Source of the DNA: a virus | Strand: one strand, 5' to 3' | Virus record (IMG/VR): IMGVR_UViG_3300014946_000127 | Length of the DNA: 64,000 nucleotides | In this document: piece by piece, positions 2,647-58,105 of the stretch | Layout: every line of letters starts with the position of its first letter | Position numbering within the stretch: position 1 is the first letter of the stretch | Notes under the pieces: model-generated | Databases searched by the model: none | What the model was told of the DNA's origin: nothing | Seen by the model: the letters and a program-made list of their open reading frames with translations, nothing else | Made by a program: the position numbers and the translations under genes

Positions 2647-3930
2647 TTAACTGATAATCCCGCTGTCGGGAATGTCGAATGTCACGTTTTTGGATAGTGA
2701 GTCGAGTTGGACGCCGGCCTCGCCCGACGAGGAGACCCCATACACGGAACAGGTTAAGTAATAGGTATGGGTTCCCGGTGGAAGGTCCGGATGTATCGTC
2801 CCCAAAGGGATATTCAAAATGAGAATCCCAGTTCCCTTGTATTCGTAATCATAGATCGCGAGGAATCCGGACCCCGAAATACGGAAGGAGTATTTCTCAC
2901 CCACCGGAGGATTTCCGTTCGGAAAACTGATACGCACCTGAAAGTAGCTCGAAAGGAAAGTGAAATCCACGATTTTAATCGGGGTATATGTGCTGTTTAT
3001 CTCGGCTATCATAGCTATCGATGTGGGTATGGGGAAATAATCGCCCAAGATGAATTGCGTGCCCACTCCCGTCCAGTACTCGAACGATTTCTTATCGATA
3101 AGGAACAACGTCACCTTCAAACTCGCCCCCACCGAATCCTTACCGGGGAATGTGTCGCTCTGTCCGACAGGAGGACTCGGCGATACAGTCCCGTCGTTGA
3201 AAAACTTCACTCTGAAAGAAGAATACCAGACATCTCCCATTGACGTCCCCTTTACCCGCAGTGTCGTCACGGTGTTTGTCGAGGTATTCGTCAGCAGGCG
3301 GGCGTAACTTCCCCCGTTCTCGTCGGTGACGAGAATAGCCGGATAATAATCGCCGACACTCTTGTCGGAGGCCAGAGCCAGCCACGATTCGACGGGTACA
3401 CCGGTGGGGTTTACCGAATCATCGTAATAATTGATCTTGACAAAAAGATACGGCACGTCCGCACTGATTTCGTCGATCCGGCTTCCCGTTAAATTAGGTT
3501 CCGCATTGTGGTCGTATCCGTCGAAGTCACTGAGGCGGCAAAAATCCGTCCCCGGGTGCGGATAGGCCACATAATCGAAGGAGGTGTCATGGATAGCGAC
3601 AAGATTCCCGTGCGGTATCGTGGCTTTCAGCCCATAGCGTATGCCCTGATTTTTGTCGGTGTCGCTCCCTTCCCACTGGTCGATATATGTCGTGACCCCG
3701 CCGGCCTGTTGGGGATAGTTGTCGGAGAGAGGCGCAGCCTGCGGATAGCGCACGGGTTTATGACGGCTCCATTTATTGATACGTCCCGGACGGCCACCCT
3801 GCAACAGGGGGCGTTCGAGGGCAACGATGTCGGCCACGTCCCATACCCCGTTCTTCGGGTATATCCCCAGCAGGTTATAGGGGTCGGTTATCACCACCGG
3901 GGCGACAATCTGGTTGTTCTTGATAGACAT
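2647..3930 (-). CDS. Hypothetical tail/baseplate structural protein
   Basis: 427 aa, directly downstream of the tail-fibre gene, gap of 4 nt. Confidence 0.55.
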   Translation of the reverse strand: MSIKNNQIVAPVVITDPYNLLGIYPKNGVWDVADIVALERPLLQGGRPGRINKWSRHKPVRYPQAAPLSDNYPQQAGGVTTYIDQWEGSDTDKNQGIRYGLKATIPHGNLVAIHDTSFDYVAYPHPGTDFCRLSDFDGYDHNAEPNLTGSRIDEISADVPYLFVKINYYDDSVNPTGVPVESWLALASDKSVGDYYPAILVTDENGGSYARLLTNTSTNTVTTLRVKGTSMGDVWYSSFRVKFFNDGTVSPSPPVGQSDTFPGKDSVGASLKVTLFLIDKKSFEYWTGVGTQFILGDYFPIPTSIAMIAEINSTYTPIKIVDFTFLSSYFQVRISFPNGNPPVGEKYSFRISGSGFLAIYDYEYKGTGILILNIPLGTIHPDLPPGTHTYYLTCSVYGVSSSGEAGVQLDSLSKNVTFDIPDSGIIS

Positions 3931-27862: not shown

Positions 27863-28018
27863 AGGTAGCAGCAGGACTCGAACCTGCAATGCTTGGCAAT
27901 CTTCTACATCTTCCGTGTAACACTGGATTGGTTCGTTTTACAATGATGCCCAGTTTTCATAACATCGTAACCAAGTCTACTAAGAGTTGTCAGCGTCTAC
28001 CAATTCCGCCATACTACC
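27863..28018 (-). tRNA. Aberrant class-II-like tRNA-like gene (156 nt) with tRNA-Leu-like 5' acceptor/D-arm and a ~66-nt insertion between D-arm and anticodon arm
   Basis: 5' GGTAGTA-TG-GCGGAATTGGTAGACGC (D-arm as in bacterial tRNA-Leu) ... anticodon-arm-like TTACA-CGGAAGA-TGTAG, 16-nt variable region, T-arm GCAGG-TTCGAGT-CCTGC, acceptor 3' TGCTACC pairing 7/7 with the 5' end (one G-U). Confidence 0.4.
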
Positions 28019-28137
28019 AAATTTGCGTGACTTTCCACGCTGTCAGATTGTTTGCAGTACCAACTAAATGCAAGGAATCTAACCTTGTCGCTTACTTTAC
28101 ACAACCTCAATCAACGAGCCGAGTTTAACGGCATTAG

Positions 28138-28207
28138 AGCGGAAACAGGGAATCGAACCCCACTCTTTGGCTGGAATGCCAACGCTCTACCGATGAGCTA
28201 TTTCCGC
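28138..28207 (-). tRNA. tRNA-like gene, 70 nt, with an apparent 6-nt anticodon loop ATTCCA (Trp/Gly-type; noncanonical)
   Basis: GCGGAAA-TA-GCTC-ATCGGTA-GAGC-G-TTGGC-ATTCCA-GCCAA-AGAG-TGGGG-TTCGATT-CCCTG-TTTCCGC-T. Perfect acceptor, D and T arms; the anticodon loop is one nt short. Confidence 0.55.
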
Positions 28208-54832: not shown

Positions 54833-55792
54833 TCAATCGAAAAGTGTTTTTGGCTTTTCATCGGGGAGAAACAGCCCATTTACAGCTAATACCTTTCTCA
54901 TCGCTTCTCGATAAGTAACGCCGTTGTTCGTATAGTTCATGAAGTGATTGTACATCTTGGGGTACAACTCATAGCAAAGTTGAAGCCGGTTGTCGTCTTT
55001 GAATTGGCAACCATATCCGCAGAACATACAGCCTGTTCGTTTTGCCCCTTTATGGTATATATCTGCAATTTTCAATCCCCTCTCTCTTATGTATGCCCAA
55101 ATGTCATCTTCAAGCCAAATTGATAGAGGCTTTGAATTGGTTGTATCGTCAAATTGATTACAACCACCAGCTTGTAAGTATTTCATCTGACGCTGAATGC
55201 TTTCAGATGCCATTTCTCCGCTTATTGGAAACAACCCGCTTGTTATATGATATTCATGAAATGGCTTTTTCTTTAATTGATTACAGCATTTTTCGCTTAC
55301 ATCAAACTTTTCGTCAATCAAAAACATCCATTTCTTCGCCAACTTAAATATACTATGACGTTTTACTACAAAATTTTCAAAAACTTTGCCGTCTGGTTTT
55401 TTTCTCACCTTACCTATTATAGCAGATGTTGATTTACTGATAAGTGGGAATCCGTATTTTTCAAATACCTGTGCTGGCTTTAATGTTGGATATATAATTT
55501 CAATGTCATATCCTTCTGTGTTTTTAAGCTCTCGGACGAACCTTACTATATCGGGATATTCATTGCCCGTATTGCAGAAAACAGCCTTTATATCGGGTTT
55601 GACGATACGGCATAAATCAAGTAACACGGTACTGTCCTTTCCGCCACTGAACCCAACGTAAACCTGACCGTTTAGACGTGATACGAATTGGTCTATCACA
55701 CCGAGGCTGTGGTCTATCTTTTGGCGCAGGGTCCAGCTTTGTCGCTCTCTTAATTCTTTCAAGTCCATATCACTTATTAAAGTTTGATTCAA
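54833..55792 (-). CDS. PAPS-reductase-family (PP-loop ATP pyrophosphatase, DndC-like) protein
   Basis: 319 aa. VYVGFSGGKDSTVLLDL contains the SGGKDS PP-loop. C-terminal CMFCGYGC cysteine pair. Confidence 0.7.
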   Translation of the reverse strand: MNQTLISDMDLKELRERQSWTLRQKIDHSLGVIDQFVSRLNGQVYVGFSGGKDSTVLLDLCRIVKPDIKAVFCNTGNEYPDIVRFVRELKNTEGYDIEIIYPTLKPAQVFEKYGFPLISKSTSAIIGKVRKKPDGKVFENFVVKRHSIFKLAKKWMFLIDEKFDVSEKCCNQLKKKPFHEYHITSGLFPISGEMASESIQRQMKYLQAGGCNQFDDTTNSKPLSIWLEDDIWAYIRERGLKIADIYHKGAKRTGCMFCGYGCQFKDDNRLQLCYELYPKMYNHFMNYTNNGVTYREAMRKVLAVNGLFLPDEKPKTLFD

Positions 55793-56333
55793 CGACTTTG
55801 TATTTAATGGGCAATCCGGAGCAGGTGATAGCGAGCAGGGCAGAGTCCCTTTCTTCTTGGTTACTGCGGGGTATGTTAAACTCTATCCCGCTCATCTGGC
55901 ACAACCGCTTCAATTCTTCATGGGTGATCTTGCCGTCTTTCCCTTGCCAGCACTTGCGCAATGGGGATTGCTCCATGACTTGTATTCCGTAATGCCTCAG
56001 CATTTCGACTATCTTGCGACCGGTCTCTTGGTTGCGACCTACATGCTCGCCTTTCTTGGCTGCGCTCGCCCGTGTGTCTTTCGGTGACAAATGCCAGTTT
56101 GATTTGTTCTTCCAACCTGCCTCGACATATACCGCCACTCGTTCATCGTTTTTCTTGCAGTGCTCATGAAGTTTTTTTATGCCCTCTACCAACAAGGGGA
56201 ATGGGCAAACACTCATCTCCATTTTCATTTTCCTTGTGTCCAATACGGAGTAGCCGCTGCGCTCAACGTCGGGGTCTATCCCTATCACTACATCGTATTT
56301 TATTTTTCTGTTGTATGTGGCCTGTTCTTCCAT
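55770..56333 (-). CDS. RuvC-like Holliday junction resolvase
   Basis: 187 aa. YDVVIGIDPDVERSGYSVL matches the RuvC N-terminal catalytic Asp motif (IGIDPG..GY). Confidence 0.6.
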   Translation of the reverse strand: MEEQATYNRKIKYDVVIGIDPDVERSGYSVLDTRKMKMEMSVCPFPLLVEGIKKLHEHCKKNDERVAVYVEAGWKNKSNWHLSPKDTRASAAKKGEHVGRNQETGRKIVEMLRHYGIQVMEQSPLRKCWQGKDGKITHEELKRLCQMSGIEFNIPRSNQEERDSALLAITCSGLPIKYKVVESNFNK

Positions 56334-56356: not shown

Positions 56357-56586
56357 TTCGGCAGGCGGGACTCGAACCCGCATGATAGGAGTTTTTCTAA
56401 GACTTTCACTTAGTAGTTTTAATTTGTGAGGTTGCGCTCACCGTGCGATACTTTCGTATGCCTAAACTCGGAGGAGAATTGTCAAGCGGTAATTTTTATT
56501 TTACGGCTACGCCTCTACAAGCTGTGCCATTGCCAACCTATCTATAAGAGCTACACTTTATCGTATACCAATTCCGACACTGCCGA
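56357..56586 (-). ncRNA. Long tRNA-like RNA (230 nt): Leu-type acceptor and D-arm at the 5' end; anticodon-arm-like hairpin, long variable region, T-arm and acceptor at the 3' end; ~145-nt insertion in between
   Basis: 5' TCGGCAG-TG-TCGGAATTGGTATACGA ... CTAAG-TGAAAGT-CTTAG-AAAAACTCCTATCAT-GCGGG-TTCGAGT-CCCGC-CTGCCGA-A. The acceptor strands pair 7/7. The insert contains a GNRA-capped hairpin and GTGAG/CTCAC hairpin. Confidence 0.4.
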
Positions 56587-56692
56587 TACCACCTAAAACA
56601 CTTATGGCTAATTTCTCCCCGCAGTTCCTTTCTCCGTATGGTGCTCGACCACGTACCCGGCTCGGCTTGCGGGGAATGTCTCACATTATGTC

Positions 56693-57523
56693 TTATTTTA
56701 TGAATTTATTCATGTCGAATATCATTGAACCACCACCGGTAACTGTCGGTAGATTCCCGTTCCACTTCTCTATCATATTCTGCTGTATTATCAGAGTGGA
56801 TAAAGAGGCTGATATTTTTCGGTTATATTCAGCCTCGGCATCTCCTTTTATTTTCAATGCGTCTGCCTGTCCTTTCGCTTCGGCAACCTTTTTCTTTGCC
56901 GCTGCTTCTACTGCTTTTACTTCATTTTCTATTTTCAAAGCATCTTGTACAGCCTTGTTTTTGGCATCTATGGCGGCAACCAAACTCGGTGGATATTGTA
57001 AGCCGGATGTCATTTGTTCGAGCTGGAAATTCTCTGCGAGCAACTCTTTGGACAGTCTGTCTTCTATGGCCTTCTCAAACTCTTCCCGTTTGCTGACCAG
57101 CTCGTCGGTAGTATAGGCATTTAACTGTATTCGAAATGCGTTCTTTACATAGTTATATAGGGTCGTATTGATTATGTCGTCTAAATTGTCTTTTCTATAT
57201 TTCACGAATACTTGTGCGGCTTTTCCGTCTACTATCTTCAAGGAAATGGTCGGATCGACAGAAAATGATGAACCGTCTTTGGCATTGATAGTGAACGGTT
57301 CATAATCTACTGTCTGGACAAATGTAGGATATTCATAAACAGCTGTGGTTATCGGATTATACCATACTGCACCGGTAACCAATGCTACATTGTCAACGCC
57401 TTTGGAATCTCCATAAAGATTGACTTTAATGCCTTCGTATCCGGCATCTACTCGCTCGTAACAAGAGGTCATCGACATCGATGTGAAAACGGCTATCAAG
57501 CCGATAATGAATTTACTTTTCAT
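56693..57523 (-). CDS. SPFH/Band-7 (prohibitin/HflKC-like) domain lipoprotein
   Basis: 276 aa. Signal peptide + lipobox MKSKFIIGLIAVFTSMSMTSC. SPFH-like core followed by an Ala/Lys-rich coiled coil (AVEAAAKKKVAEAKGQADALKIKGDAEAEY). Confidence 0.65.
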   Translation of the reverse strand: MKSKFIIGLIAVFTSMSMTSCYERVDAGYEGIKVNLYGDSKGVDNVALVTGAVWYNPITTAVYEYPTFVQTVDYEPFTINAKDGSSFSVDPTISLKIVDGKAAQVFVKYRKDNLDDIINTTLYNYVKNAFRIQLNAYTTDELVSKREEFEKAIEDRLSKELLAENFQLEQMTSGLQYPPSLVAAIDAKNKAVQDALKIENEVKAVEAAAKKKVAEAKGQADALKIKGDAEAEYNRKISASLSTLIIQQNMIEKWNGNLPTVTGGGSMIFDMNKFIK

Positions 57524-57707
57524 GTTTCTTTTTTAATTTGATTGATGTTAAACAATTGGTCTTTATTGAAATGGATAGTATGAAGCAAAAGAGGATACAA
57601 CCTAATATGTTTTCTACTGTGCTAGGAGTAGAAATCATTGTCAATGACGCTGTGATACCGGCCATGAATAGTATGAACCAAATAAATATAGTTATGATCG
57701 TTCTCAT
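57513..57707 (-). CDS. Small membrane protein (two TM segments; NfeD-like partner?)
   Basis: 64 aa. IITIFIWFILFMAGITASLTMI and ILGCILFCFILSI. Overlaps the SPFH gene start. Confidence 0.4.
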   Translation of the reverse strand: MRTIITIFIWFILFMAGITASLTMISTPSTVENILGCILFCFILSISIKTNCLTSIKLKKKHEK

Positions 57708-58105
57708 TATATCAGGTCTATGATTTTGGTTTTCACAATTCCGTCCAGCCGCATGTCGTTAAGACCTTGTCTCATGTGTTCTTGCATAAGGCGGTTGGCT
57801 TCGGTGATGTCTTTGGCGCAAACGAGGTTGTAGTACTTCGTTTCCTTTTCATTGCCGTTGTCATCGATGAATATGTCTATCAACGTGGCTTTGTAGAAGG
57901 GCTTGTCTTCTTCCTTCTCGTTGACTATCTCGACAACTTTCGAGCGGGTGATAGAGATTACATCGCAATTTCCGTTGTACTGTTCAAGTCCTTTTTTCTC
58001 GGCCTCGGCGAACAGTACTACATCGGTGATGAAGTGTTCGATGACTTCTTTCATCTCTCCTTTGCTGTTCTCTTTTTCTACTTTCAGTTTGATTTCGTAA
58101 AACAT
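57707..58105 (-). CDS. Hypothetical protein
   Basis: 132-aa ORF. Confidence 0.4.
   Translation of the reverse strand: MFYEIKLKVEKENSKGEMKEVIEHFITDVVLFAEAEKKGLEQYNGNCDVISITRSKVVEIVNEKEEDKPFYKATLIDIFIDDNGNEKETKYYNLVCAKDITEANRLMQEHMRQGLNDMRLDGIVKTKIIDLI

Follow-up and report, generated by a model that had tools for sequence, protein, structure and literature searches.

What could a phage use an RNA for that has both ends of a transfer RNA (tRNA) and, between its D arm and its T arm, an interior of 179 nucleotides (nt)? The question is raised by a 230-nt element at positions 56357-56586 of a 64,000-nt stretch of viral DNA (IMG/VR virus record IMGVR_UViG_3300014946_000127). This whole stretch is the window, to which all coordinates refer unless a contig is named, and all parts of the element lie on its minus (-) strand. 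A first-pass annotation, made from the sequence itself, had described a tRNA-like RNA in which a leucine-type D arm, a T arm and a 7-base-pair (bp) acceptor stem surround a large insert; this description stands, all the motifs that it listed being present on the minus strand there. We conclude with high confidence that the element belongs to a real family of tRNA-scaffolded structured RNAs, in which a leucine-type tRNA-like scaffold carries, instead of its anticodon and variable arms, a core of some 150-180 nt that is predicted to fold as a double pseudoknot.

The resemblance to a tRNA exceeds chance, since the 17-mer of the D arm (TCGGAATTGGTATACGA) occurs identically in phage tRNA-Leu(TAA/CAA/TAG) genes called by ARAGORN and the acceptor stem covaries. 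Among 14 distinct scaffolded homologues, 97 of the 98 cells of this stem are paired; each position shows two or more standard pair types, six of the seven having three or four, and RNAalifold finds compensatory changes in every one of the seven pairs. The window copy has the bases that form the tRNA elbow (G18G19; U54, U55, C56 and A58), which are degenerate in some members of the family, and no CCA is encoded at its 3' end. There is no anticodon arm at the canonical place, which is occupied by a segment that we call S1 and by a helix, P_a. The annotation had read the CTAAG/CTTAG hairpin, a candidate with a G at position 33, as the anticodon arm, and had taken an anticodon-like loop of the form N-G-N-A-A-G-N for a feature of the family; comparison does not bear this out, the hairpin being a variable peripheral one that is not conserved among members, with stem and loop lengths that vary and with one member having no clear hairpin at that place. 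Likewise, its '15-nt variable region' proved to hold CCTATC, the 3' strand of the conserved long-range helix P_a.

The inserted domain of the window copy, about 180 nt long in a family that ranges over 120-180 nt, is closed by the 6 bp of P_a. Its core would consist of two interleaved pairs of helices, P_b with P_c and P_g with P_a (Table 1). From 5' to 3' the interior runs through S1 (UAAAG-N4-GCUCUUAUA, including the 5' strand of P_g), the 5' strand of P_a, UU, the 5' strands of P_b and P_c and the 3' strand of P_b; continues with an A-rich linker (GUAAAA...AAUUAC...), the 3' strand of P_c, two bases (CC here) and the GAGUU 3' strand of P_g; and ends with the hairpin P_d, A-rich segments with one or two further hairpins, AAACU, the 3' strand of P_a, AU and the T arm. 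The GTAAAA of the linker is near-invariant, L314 having GGAAAA.

Support for this fold comes from comparison with homologues and not from thermodynamics, the minimum free energy of the single sequence being unremarkable (z = -1.8). We aligned 10 sequences over the four core helices (20 pairs) and used column shuffles and slid registers as controls. The helices are 99% paired, as against 87.6% in the shuffles; both partners have changed at 9 of the 20 pairs, as against 3.0 ± 1.0, a count reached in 0 of 500 shuffles; and registers slid by 1-3 columns are only 24-45% paired. Taken singly, P_a is paired in 90 of 90 cells, in seven helix variants and with changes on both sides at four of its six pairs, a figure that RNAalifold also returns. 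P_c comes in eight variants (e.g. GGGUG/CACCC, AACCU/AGGUU, AGCUG/CAGCU), with three of five pairs changed on both sides and one internal C.U mismatch in the window. P_b and P_g vary little in sequence: the former is 100% paired with a single compensatory change (GGT/ACC in L185), and the latter, paired in 74 of 75 cells and with a G.U replaced by G-C in two members, has weaker support than the other core helices. The conserved U.G and G.U pairs of P_b and P_g are compatible with a minus-strand RNA only. A covariance model of the core has one match in the window, at 56382-56560 (117 bits, E = 8e-23).

Around this core, the peripheral hairpins differ among members in number, length and loop, and covary where they are common. 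A hairpin is predicted at the place of P_d in most members, on unrelated stems (CAGG/CCTG, AGAGC/GCTCT, ACTGT/ACAGT, CGG/CCG); in L185 (AGAC/GTCT) and L152 (CAG/CTG) it was read by eye, the minimum-free-energy fold being different there. The GTGAG/CTCAC hairpin retains its loop on another stem in L152 (TCAC/GTGA), is GAC/GTC with the loop CGCAAT in L172, and is absent from shorter members. P_f becomes CTTGG/CCAAG with an unchanged loop in L152 and L172; other members have different small hairpins in its stead, and L311 has none.

Table 1. Features of the element, in 5' to 3' order, with its predicted helices, and the alleles found at the same locus in related contigs.
Feature	Position	Strand	Remarks
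Whole element	56357-56586	-	230 nt, 5' to 3' from 56586 to 56357; allele B of the locus
Acceptor stem, 5' strand TCGGCAG	56580-56586	-	partner 56358-56364
U8 and G9 (TG), 5' of the D arm	56578-56579	-	
Leucine-type D arm TCGGAATTGGTATACGA	56561-56577	-	3-bp stem, A14, G18G19
Segment S1 TAAAGTGTAGCTCTTATA	56543-56560	-	most conserved part of the core; AGCTC (56548-56552) is the 5' strand of P_g
P_a, 5' strand GATAGG	56537-56542	-	long-range closing helix; partner 56384-56389
P_b, 5' strand TGGC	56532-56535	-	partner GCCG 56504-56507; stem 1 of H-type pseudoknot
P_c, 5' strand AGGCG	56510-56514	-	inside the loop of P_b; partner CTCCT 56472-56476; stem 2
P_b, 3' strand GCCG	56504-56507	-	followed by A-rich linker GTAAAATAAAAATTAC (56489-56504)
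P_c, 3' strand CTCCT	56472-56476	-	
P_g, 3' strand GAGTT	56465-56469	-	partner AGCTC in S1; interleaves with P_a
Peripheral hairpin P_d, ATAC-GAAA-GTAT	56448-56459	-	GNRA tetraloop
Peripheral hairpin GTGAG-CGCAAC-CTCAC	56426-56441	-	
Peripheral hairpin P_f, CTAAG-TGAAAGT-CTTAG	56397-56413	-	
P_a, 3' strand CCTATC	56384-56389	-	preceded by near-invariant AAACT; followed by AT, then the T arm
T arm GCGGG-TTCGAGT-CCCGC	56365-56381	-	matched locally by Rfam (14.5 bits)
Acceptor stem, 3' strand CTGCCGA	56358-56364	-	discriminator A at 56357
Allele A			85 nt; commonest of 80 contigs (approximate)
Allele B (this window)	56357-56586	-	230 nt; roughly 25 of 80 contigs
Allele C			233 nt; 6 of 80 contigs (approximate)
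Allele D			166 nt; 2 of 80 contigs (approximate)

A search for covarying homologues had been suggested with the first-pass annotation, and they exist, the acceptor stem and the core helices both covarying among them. With blastn, the first 120 nt of the element match three Brochothrix thermosphacta phages at 70% identity, the homologues in these phages ranging over 70-78%; these copies, unannotated in their GenBank records and lying beside tRNA genes, have another acceptor stem (GCGATAG/CTATCGC), a like D arm and a T arm of their own. A 20-base core motif was found in 97 viral-contig stretches and in four further new metagenome contigs, and motif scans followed by an nhmmer profile brought the family to 15 clearly distinct sequences. 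The motif had no match in 185,579 bacterial and archaeal species (one genome each); a looser pattern gave seven matches in the same genomes, chance-looking and in apparent coding sequence, and the core is matched by none of the families in Rfam 15. All members come from sequence of phages, whose hosts are widely different (Bacteroidota, Bacillota): they occur in crAss-like gut phages, in the three Brochothrix phages and in other metagenome contigs, where they are located in tRNA clusters or just upstream of same-strand open reading frames (ORFs). The ORFs around nine members include no shared partner protein. As to the window itself, its SPFH-like gene matches the crAss-like phages cr126_1, cr128_1, IAS virus and PhiCrAssBcn at 67-73% DNA identity, and the close relatives of its phage are IMG/VR contigs only.

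One member of the family separates the two parts of the molecule. In L138 (the same sequence as L312) the full core, S1 included, ends in a closing stem of 10 bp (AAGATTGAGT/ACTCAATCTT), and tRNA parts are altogether missing. Since a plain stem can thus replace the tRNA scaffold, we regard the core as the functional part and the scaffold as accessory.

Comparison among homologues disposes of the view that the element is a tRNA pseudogene in decay, into which junk has been inserted, or only looks like a tRNA by chance. The unexceptional z of the single-sequence fold would agree with it, as would the fact that standard tRNA finders do not call the element; it is nonetheless refuted by the covariation of the helices, with compensatory changes in at least five of them among homologues from phages of different host phyla, and we give it next to no credence. 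Moreover, related IMG/VR contigs with this allele have copies of the element that are 98-100% identical, while flanking genes drop to 83-85% (DNA of the RuvC-like gene between sublineages).

Nor is the element a canonical tRNA: it has no anticodon arm with 5-bp stem, 7-nt loop and U33, and it is called neither by ARAGORN in default mode nor by Rfam at gathering thresholds, a permissive Rfam scan (E <= 10, 401 nt) finding the T arm only, over 17 nt. An intron-containing class II tRNA, one of the possibilities named in the first-pass annotation and taken here as a leucine tRNA that is spliced to a normal one, has precedents in phages. In the viral contigs L101, L114, L120, L125 and L130, tRNA-Leu(UAA) genes whose D arm is identical are split by group I introns, with a large insertion likewise between the D and T arms; the intron option of ARAGORN forces a 'tRNA-Phe' with a 146-nt intron on the element; and Lak megaphages are reported to have 'pseudo tRNAs' with enigmatic, highly conserved introns that are identical across cohorts and unclassified by Rfam (bioRxiv 10.1101/356790). 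However, no group I or II model matches the element at E <= 10, whereas the L101 intron, as positive control, scores 40.4 bits, and the phage tRNA-Leu(UAA) genes keep both halves of the anticodon stem, which the element does not. The forced anticodon stem contains an A.C mismatch and a G.U pair, and the forced reading is inconsistent among alleles (Phe, Tyr, Lys or none) and not conserved across members. The conserved insert extends from the base after the D arm, in a segment that L138 also has, to 2 nt before the T arm, so that excision would remove any anticodon arm and leave the D arm, AU and the T arm; the would-be anticodon bases vary and join helix P_g. The intron reading is therefore largely refuted and, to us, very improbable. 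A link of the element to the phage tRNA-Leu introns was considered on account of local shared words (TATAGGTTG) and dropped, neither an nhmmer profile nor Rfam giving one. By description, the Lak pseudo tRNAs resemble the element in being tRNA-like genes of unusual size from gut phages that infect Bacteroidota; three family members used as blastn queries had no match to Lak genomes, and the enigmatic introns may be a related phenomenon.

The interrupted tRNA-Leu(UAA) genes deserve a remark of their own. They lie in viral contigs of 100-180 kb, have their long insert in the anticodon loop and are missed by ARAGORN. The insert of L101 matches the group I model with E = 1.7e-07, its score being under the Rfam gathering score of 50; L120, L125 and L130 are near-identical to the L101 sequence, and the insert of L114 differs, with the same group I words by eye.

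How exchangeable the interior is became apparent from the site upstream of the RuvC-like gene in 80 related contigs. In all of them it starts with TCGGCAGTG and ends with GCGGGTTCGAGTCCCGCCTGCCGAA, save single-base variants in a few, and between these ends there are at least four unrelated forms (Table 1). The D arm switches along with the interior, whereas the acceptor stem and the T arm remain with the locus, the T arm unchanged across the four alleles bar single-base T-loop variants in a few contigs. The locus is a polymorphic socket that exchanges D arm and cargo. None of the four alleles is a normal tRNA. Allele A scores 43 bits with the Rfam tRNA model and has the anticodon stem GUAUA/UAUAC around a 20-nt loop; the core covariance model has no match to alleles A, C and D; and, searched with blastn against GenBank phages, allele C finds nothing and allele D one uncultured gut phage. 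In L004 (2893-2977), where ARAGORN calls allele A a tRNA-Arg(tcg) with a G at position 33, its anticodon stem is a perfect one of 5 bp, and no standard anticodon loop is present in the 20 nt that the stem encloses.

The surroundings of the socket change as well, the region also gaining and losing a DNA methyltransferase gene and an SPFH cassette. Relatives with the 85-nt allele are without the SPFH-like gene and a 64-aa ORF (L004 2600-3010 compared with window 56693-57707), and in them the homologue of a 132-aa gene is directly followed by the tRNA-like locus; the stretch between the 132-aa gene and the RuvC-like gene is hypervariable, as the coming and going of the SPFH-like gene and the 64-aa ORF indicates. 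In L045 (869-2301) and L058 (937-2301) the tRNA-like RNA is separated from the RuvC-like gene by an inserted ORF, by its reading a putative cytosine-5 DNA methyltransferase. Behind this ORF, 88 nt from the 3' part of allele B are present as a duplicate and are joined at a TGAGCGCA microhomology to a fragment of the 5' end of the RuvC-like gene, an arrangement that looks like the scar of illegitimate recombination.

Allelic turnover in such a region is what a tRNA decoy might be expected to undergo, and the first-pass annotation had listed one among its options. In this reading the tRNA shape would absorb host anticodon nucleases or tRNA-modifying toxins, and the insert would merely replace the cleavable anticodon loop. 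The conserved scaffold would agree with this, as would a polymorphic locus among genes gained and lost (e.g. the DNA methyltransferase), a pattern that we read as typical of hot spots of counter-defence. Anticodon nucleases, however, recognise the anticodon stem-loop, precisely what is missing here; D and T loops are degenerate in several members; and the insert is more conserved than the tRNA features, L138 retaining it without the tRNA, which argues that the insert and not the tRNA shape is the active part. We consider a decoy distinctly improbable.

A second element of the window, at 27863-28018 (minus strand, 156 nt), had been credited with the same architecture and placed in one family with the 56357-56586 element. 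The common scaffold is confirmed: the Rfam tRNA model gives it 31.7 bits, on the strength of the acceptor stem, the D arm and the T arm, and finds no counterpart to the 3' strand of an anticodon stem. The common cargo is not, since the core covariance model, which gives 117 bits at 56357-56586, has no match there. The two elements share the scaffold only, and their cargo types differ. Both types meet at a locus of sister crAss-like phages, which lies downstream of a homologue (62-71% amino-acid identity) of the window gene 57707-58105 and which we therefore regard as the positional equivalent of the 56357-56586 locus. L137 and L172 have one scaffold there (GGTGGTA/TACCACC, T arm GCAGGTGCAAGTCCTGC) with two cargos, L137 (1501-1656) that of the 27863-28018 type and L172 that of the 56357-56586 type; L152 has the latter cargo at the equivalent locus, with the acceptor stem GTCAGTA/TGCTGAC. 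The two cargo types are interchangeable at one locus. A homologue of the 27863-28018 element in MT835900.1 is 86.7% identical, with compensatory changes seen by eye (CTGG/CCAG to CGGG/CCCG, GTG/CAC to CGT/ACG), so this cargo is probably structured too; its single-sequence fold (z = +0.3) is uninformative.

What, then, would such an RNA do? On balance we favour a stable non-coding RNA made of two modules, a scaffold that is processed and a cargo that acts in trans. The SPFH-like gene, whose ORF terminates about 100 nt upstream of the element, the element and the RuvC-like gene would be co-transcribed from the minus strand; host RNase P would cut at the 5' end of the element, and tRNA 3'-end processing with CCA addition would complete the other end; the tRNA shape would then shield the RNA from decay, and the cargo could act in trans, its target being either one that distant bacteria share or one of the phage. 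Processing and stabilisation of the RNA are a role of the scaffold that we consider somewhat more likely than not. It has a counterpart in the engineered tRNA scaffold of Ponchon and Dardel, where a structured RNA replaces the anticodon stem-loop and the chimera is processed and stabilised like a tRNA (PMC3401473). There, as in the element, the acceptor, D and T arms are retained; the likeness is one of layout, the former being a laboratory construct and the latter a natural conserved family whose scaffold is leucine-type and whose cargo is specific and comes in alleles that can be exchanged. The frequent swapping of the cargo suggests an accessory role in host takeover or counter-defence, and an accessory role, possibly in counter-defence, fits allelic turnover in a region that gains and loses genes. 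The spread of the family over phages of Bacteroidota and Bacillota in turn suggests a target that is common to distant bacteria and broadly conserved, or a self-contained activity of the RNA.

Several points weigh against this proposal. The seeds of the family were the window, two Brochothrix phages and L138, and the remaining members were collected with patterns that fix bases of S1 and GTTGG; the invariance of these bases, with TAAAG and GCTCTTATAG of S1 found in 15 of 15 distinct members and both fixed in the collecting pattern, is thus partly circular, a circularity that does not affect the helix covariation. P_g shows a single compensatory change (TGCTC/GAGTA in L185), and its GAGUU could instead pair with an invariant AACUC near the 3' end. 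We prefer P_g because the variants of L152, L185 and L263 would break the alternative pairing and fit P_g only; a switch between the two pairings is conceivable. The cuts by RNase P and the 3'-end processing are read from the shape of the molecule, and action in trans is a default reading, the flanking genes being different between phages. Finally, the RNA of the window ends 23 nt before the start codon of the RuvC-like ORF (55770-56333, minus strand), several members are similarly near an ORF, and the leucine-type D arm is found in every scaffolded member and in three of the four other cargo types, the 85-nt allele A being the one without it. The last two points each lead to an alternative.

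Proximity to the RuvC-like gene makes a cis role in mRNA processing or expression possible for this copy. As a general explanation it would have the tRNA shape recruit RNase P and RNase Z to cut between the gene upstream and the RuvC-like gene, as a kind of tRNA punctuation, with the insert tuning this cleavage or the expression of the downstream gene. It draws on the 23-nt spacing on the same strand, on the similar place of L185, L311 and L315, about 30-55 nt upstream of an ORF, and on the signals around the element, where no excess of promoters or terminators was seen and no separate one stands out. We nevertheless judge it improbable, for the downstream genes are unrelated between phages (RuvC-like here, tRNAs or other ORFs elsewhere, the latter including what we take, from translations read without a family search, to be a DnaQ-like exonuclease and a RecT-like protein). 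In ADU4, BtpYZU01 and L313 the element is followed by another tRNA and not by an ORF, and after L172-type loci comes a sequence that by eye reads as an intrinsic terminator. Simple punctuation, moreover, would hardly call for a domain of about 150 nt whose double pseudoknot covaries and which is conserved from one phylum to another.

The leucine-type D arms tell against a scaffold that serves processing only, since any tRNA type should then do; they could reflect common descent or a need for leucylation. The identity set of bacterial leucyl-tRNA synthetase (LeuRS) consists of A73, U8-A14, G18-U55 and G19-C56, and the anticodon arm is dispensable (PMC2377443). A scaffold of this type would therefore be explained if the RNA were a chargeable tRNA mimic, leucylated by the host LeuRS and acting on the ribosome, or on another user of aminoacyl-tRNA, in the manner of transfer-messenger RNA (tmRNA), with the pseudoknot domain replacing PK1 and the body. 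The window copy has the full set (A73, U8-A14, G18G19 and a T loop with U55C56), and its strand order parallels that of tmRNA (SsrA): a tRNA-like domain that both ends of the molecule build and that includes the T arm, a long-range closing helix joined to that arm, an H-type pseudoknot with an A-rich loop right after the 5' strand of the helix, and hairpins before the helix closes. This reading is unlikely all the same. Some scaffolds combine degenerate D or T loops with a discriminator other than A, which is G, U or C in five of the 14 scaffolded members, and such changes cut leucylation 45- to 143-fold (PMC2377443); the L172 and L152 types are without G18G19 and U55, their T loop being UGCAAGU; and L138 has no tRNA part. 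The miniature tmRNA-like molecule envisaged in the first-pass annotation likewise agrees in layout and fails in substance: there is no G3:U70, the third pair being G-C here and U-A, G-C, A-U or C-G across the family, never G.U; by inspection, no reading frame or stop after the pseudoknot is conserved among members; ARAGORN calls no tmRNA, and the Rfam tmRNA model reaches 14.5 bits, on the T arm only, against a threshold of 47. The family also differs from tmRNA in its true D stem and its length of 160-230 nt.

We return to the processed scaffold with a cargo acting in trans. A bolder version of it, which we put forward tentatively and think doubtful rather than probable, is that loci of this kind are natural tRNA sockets, a fixed minihelix of acceptor stem and T arm into which cargos are swapped by recombination. 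The cargo of the window would then represent a novel class among large functional RNAs, either catalysing a reaction as a ribozyme or binding some conserved component of bacteria with high affinity, and would serve as an RNA-only module of host takeover or counter-defence. If true, such a module would explain both the spread over phages of unrelated hosts and the allelic turnover. Two further candidates were set aside. The strand order is loosely like that of hepatitis delta virus (HDV)-like ribozymes with their nested double pseudoknot, but P_g has 4-5 bp compared with 6-7 bp in P1, the helix that begins with a G.U pair where those ribozymes cleave, and P_c is an extra pseudoknot; no Rfam ribozyme model matches the element. 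The words GUUGGC, UAAAG and UAGCUC are shared with the L11-binding region of 23S rRNA, but the segments follow one another differently and Rfam gives no rRNA match, and we dropped the similarity as coincidence.

The general idea has precedents in tmRNA, in laboratory tRNA scaffolds and in the species 1 RNA of phage T4. Species 1 and 2 of T4 (rnaC and rnaD), 139 and 119 nt long, are stable phage RNAs encoded within the tRNA gene cluster; their function is not known to have been established, and the annotation of species 1 says no more than 'small, stable RNA'. A T arm of tRNA type (CCGGG-TTCGAAT-CCCGG) lies at the end of rnaC; the two RNAs differ from the element in size, a clean 7-bp acceptor stem is not readable in rnaC, and the core covariance model has no match in the T4 tRNA region (L316). 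In the literature searched we found no published description of the cargo family, of the double-pseudoknot fold or of the socket-cargo polymorphism. The family is a new and well-supported one of pseudoknotted RNAs with nothing like it in Rfam 15, common to crAss-like gut phages and to phages of a Gram-positive food-spoilage bacterium. Nature appears to use the trick of the engineered tRNA scaffold, and the swap of cargos between otherwise near-identical phages is a mode of accessory variation not described in the literature searched. Some of the oversized 'pseudo tRNAs' and 'tRNA introns' of phages may likewise be cargo-carrying tRNA-like RNAs. Three cultured Brochothrix phages carry the RNA, which makes its function directly testable.

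Some minor observations concern individual members and the neighbourhood of the two elements. L273 (~3590-3810) is a family member whose 5' acceptor strand GTCAGTA is unpaired with its 3' TACCCAT and whose T arm differs, an apparent recombinant of two scaffolds that is possibly non-functional. L311 and L314 have extra sequence in the D loop, in L311 including a small hairpin (GGGAGATTTAAATTTCCTC) and in L314 an insert AGTACCGAAAGGGAA, so the scaffold tolerates insertions there too. Just upstream of the element, at window ~56600-56665 (minus strand), lies a structure of about 60 nt that has CCCCGCA...TGCGGGG as its closing stem and a fold z of -1.7; the sequence is also found upstream of the 85-nt allele in related contigs (L004 ~2815-2875). 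In the phage tRNA cluster of the window, ARAGORN reports at 28137-28207 (minus strand) a 'tRNA-???' with the two-base anticodon 'tc'; the Rfam tRNA model gives it 53 bits, its anticodon loop being one base short of the model. Between this odd tRNA and the 27863-28018 element, at ~28060-28136 (minus strand), lies a T-arm-like hairpin (CAAGG-TTAGATT-CCTTG) whose flanks, CTAATGC...GCATTTAG, almost pair, and which may be a third, degenerate tRNA-like gene. Lastly, in a 100-kb viral contig (L083, 2415-2724) ARAGORN finds a permuted tmRNA with the tag GNSYIADYTKLAA beside a tRNA-Leu.

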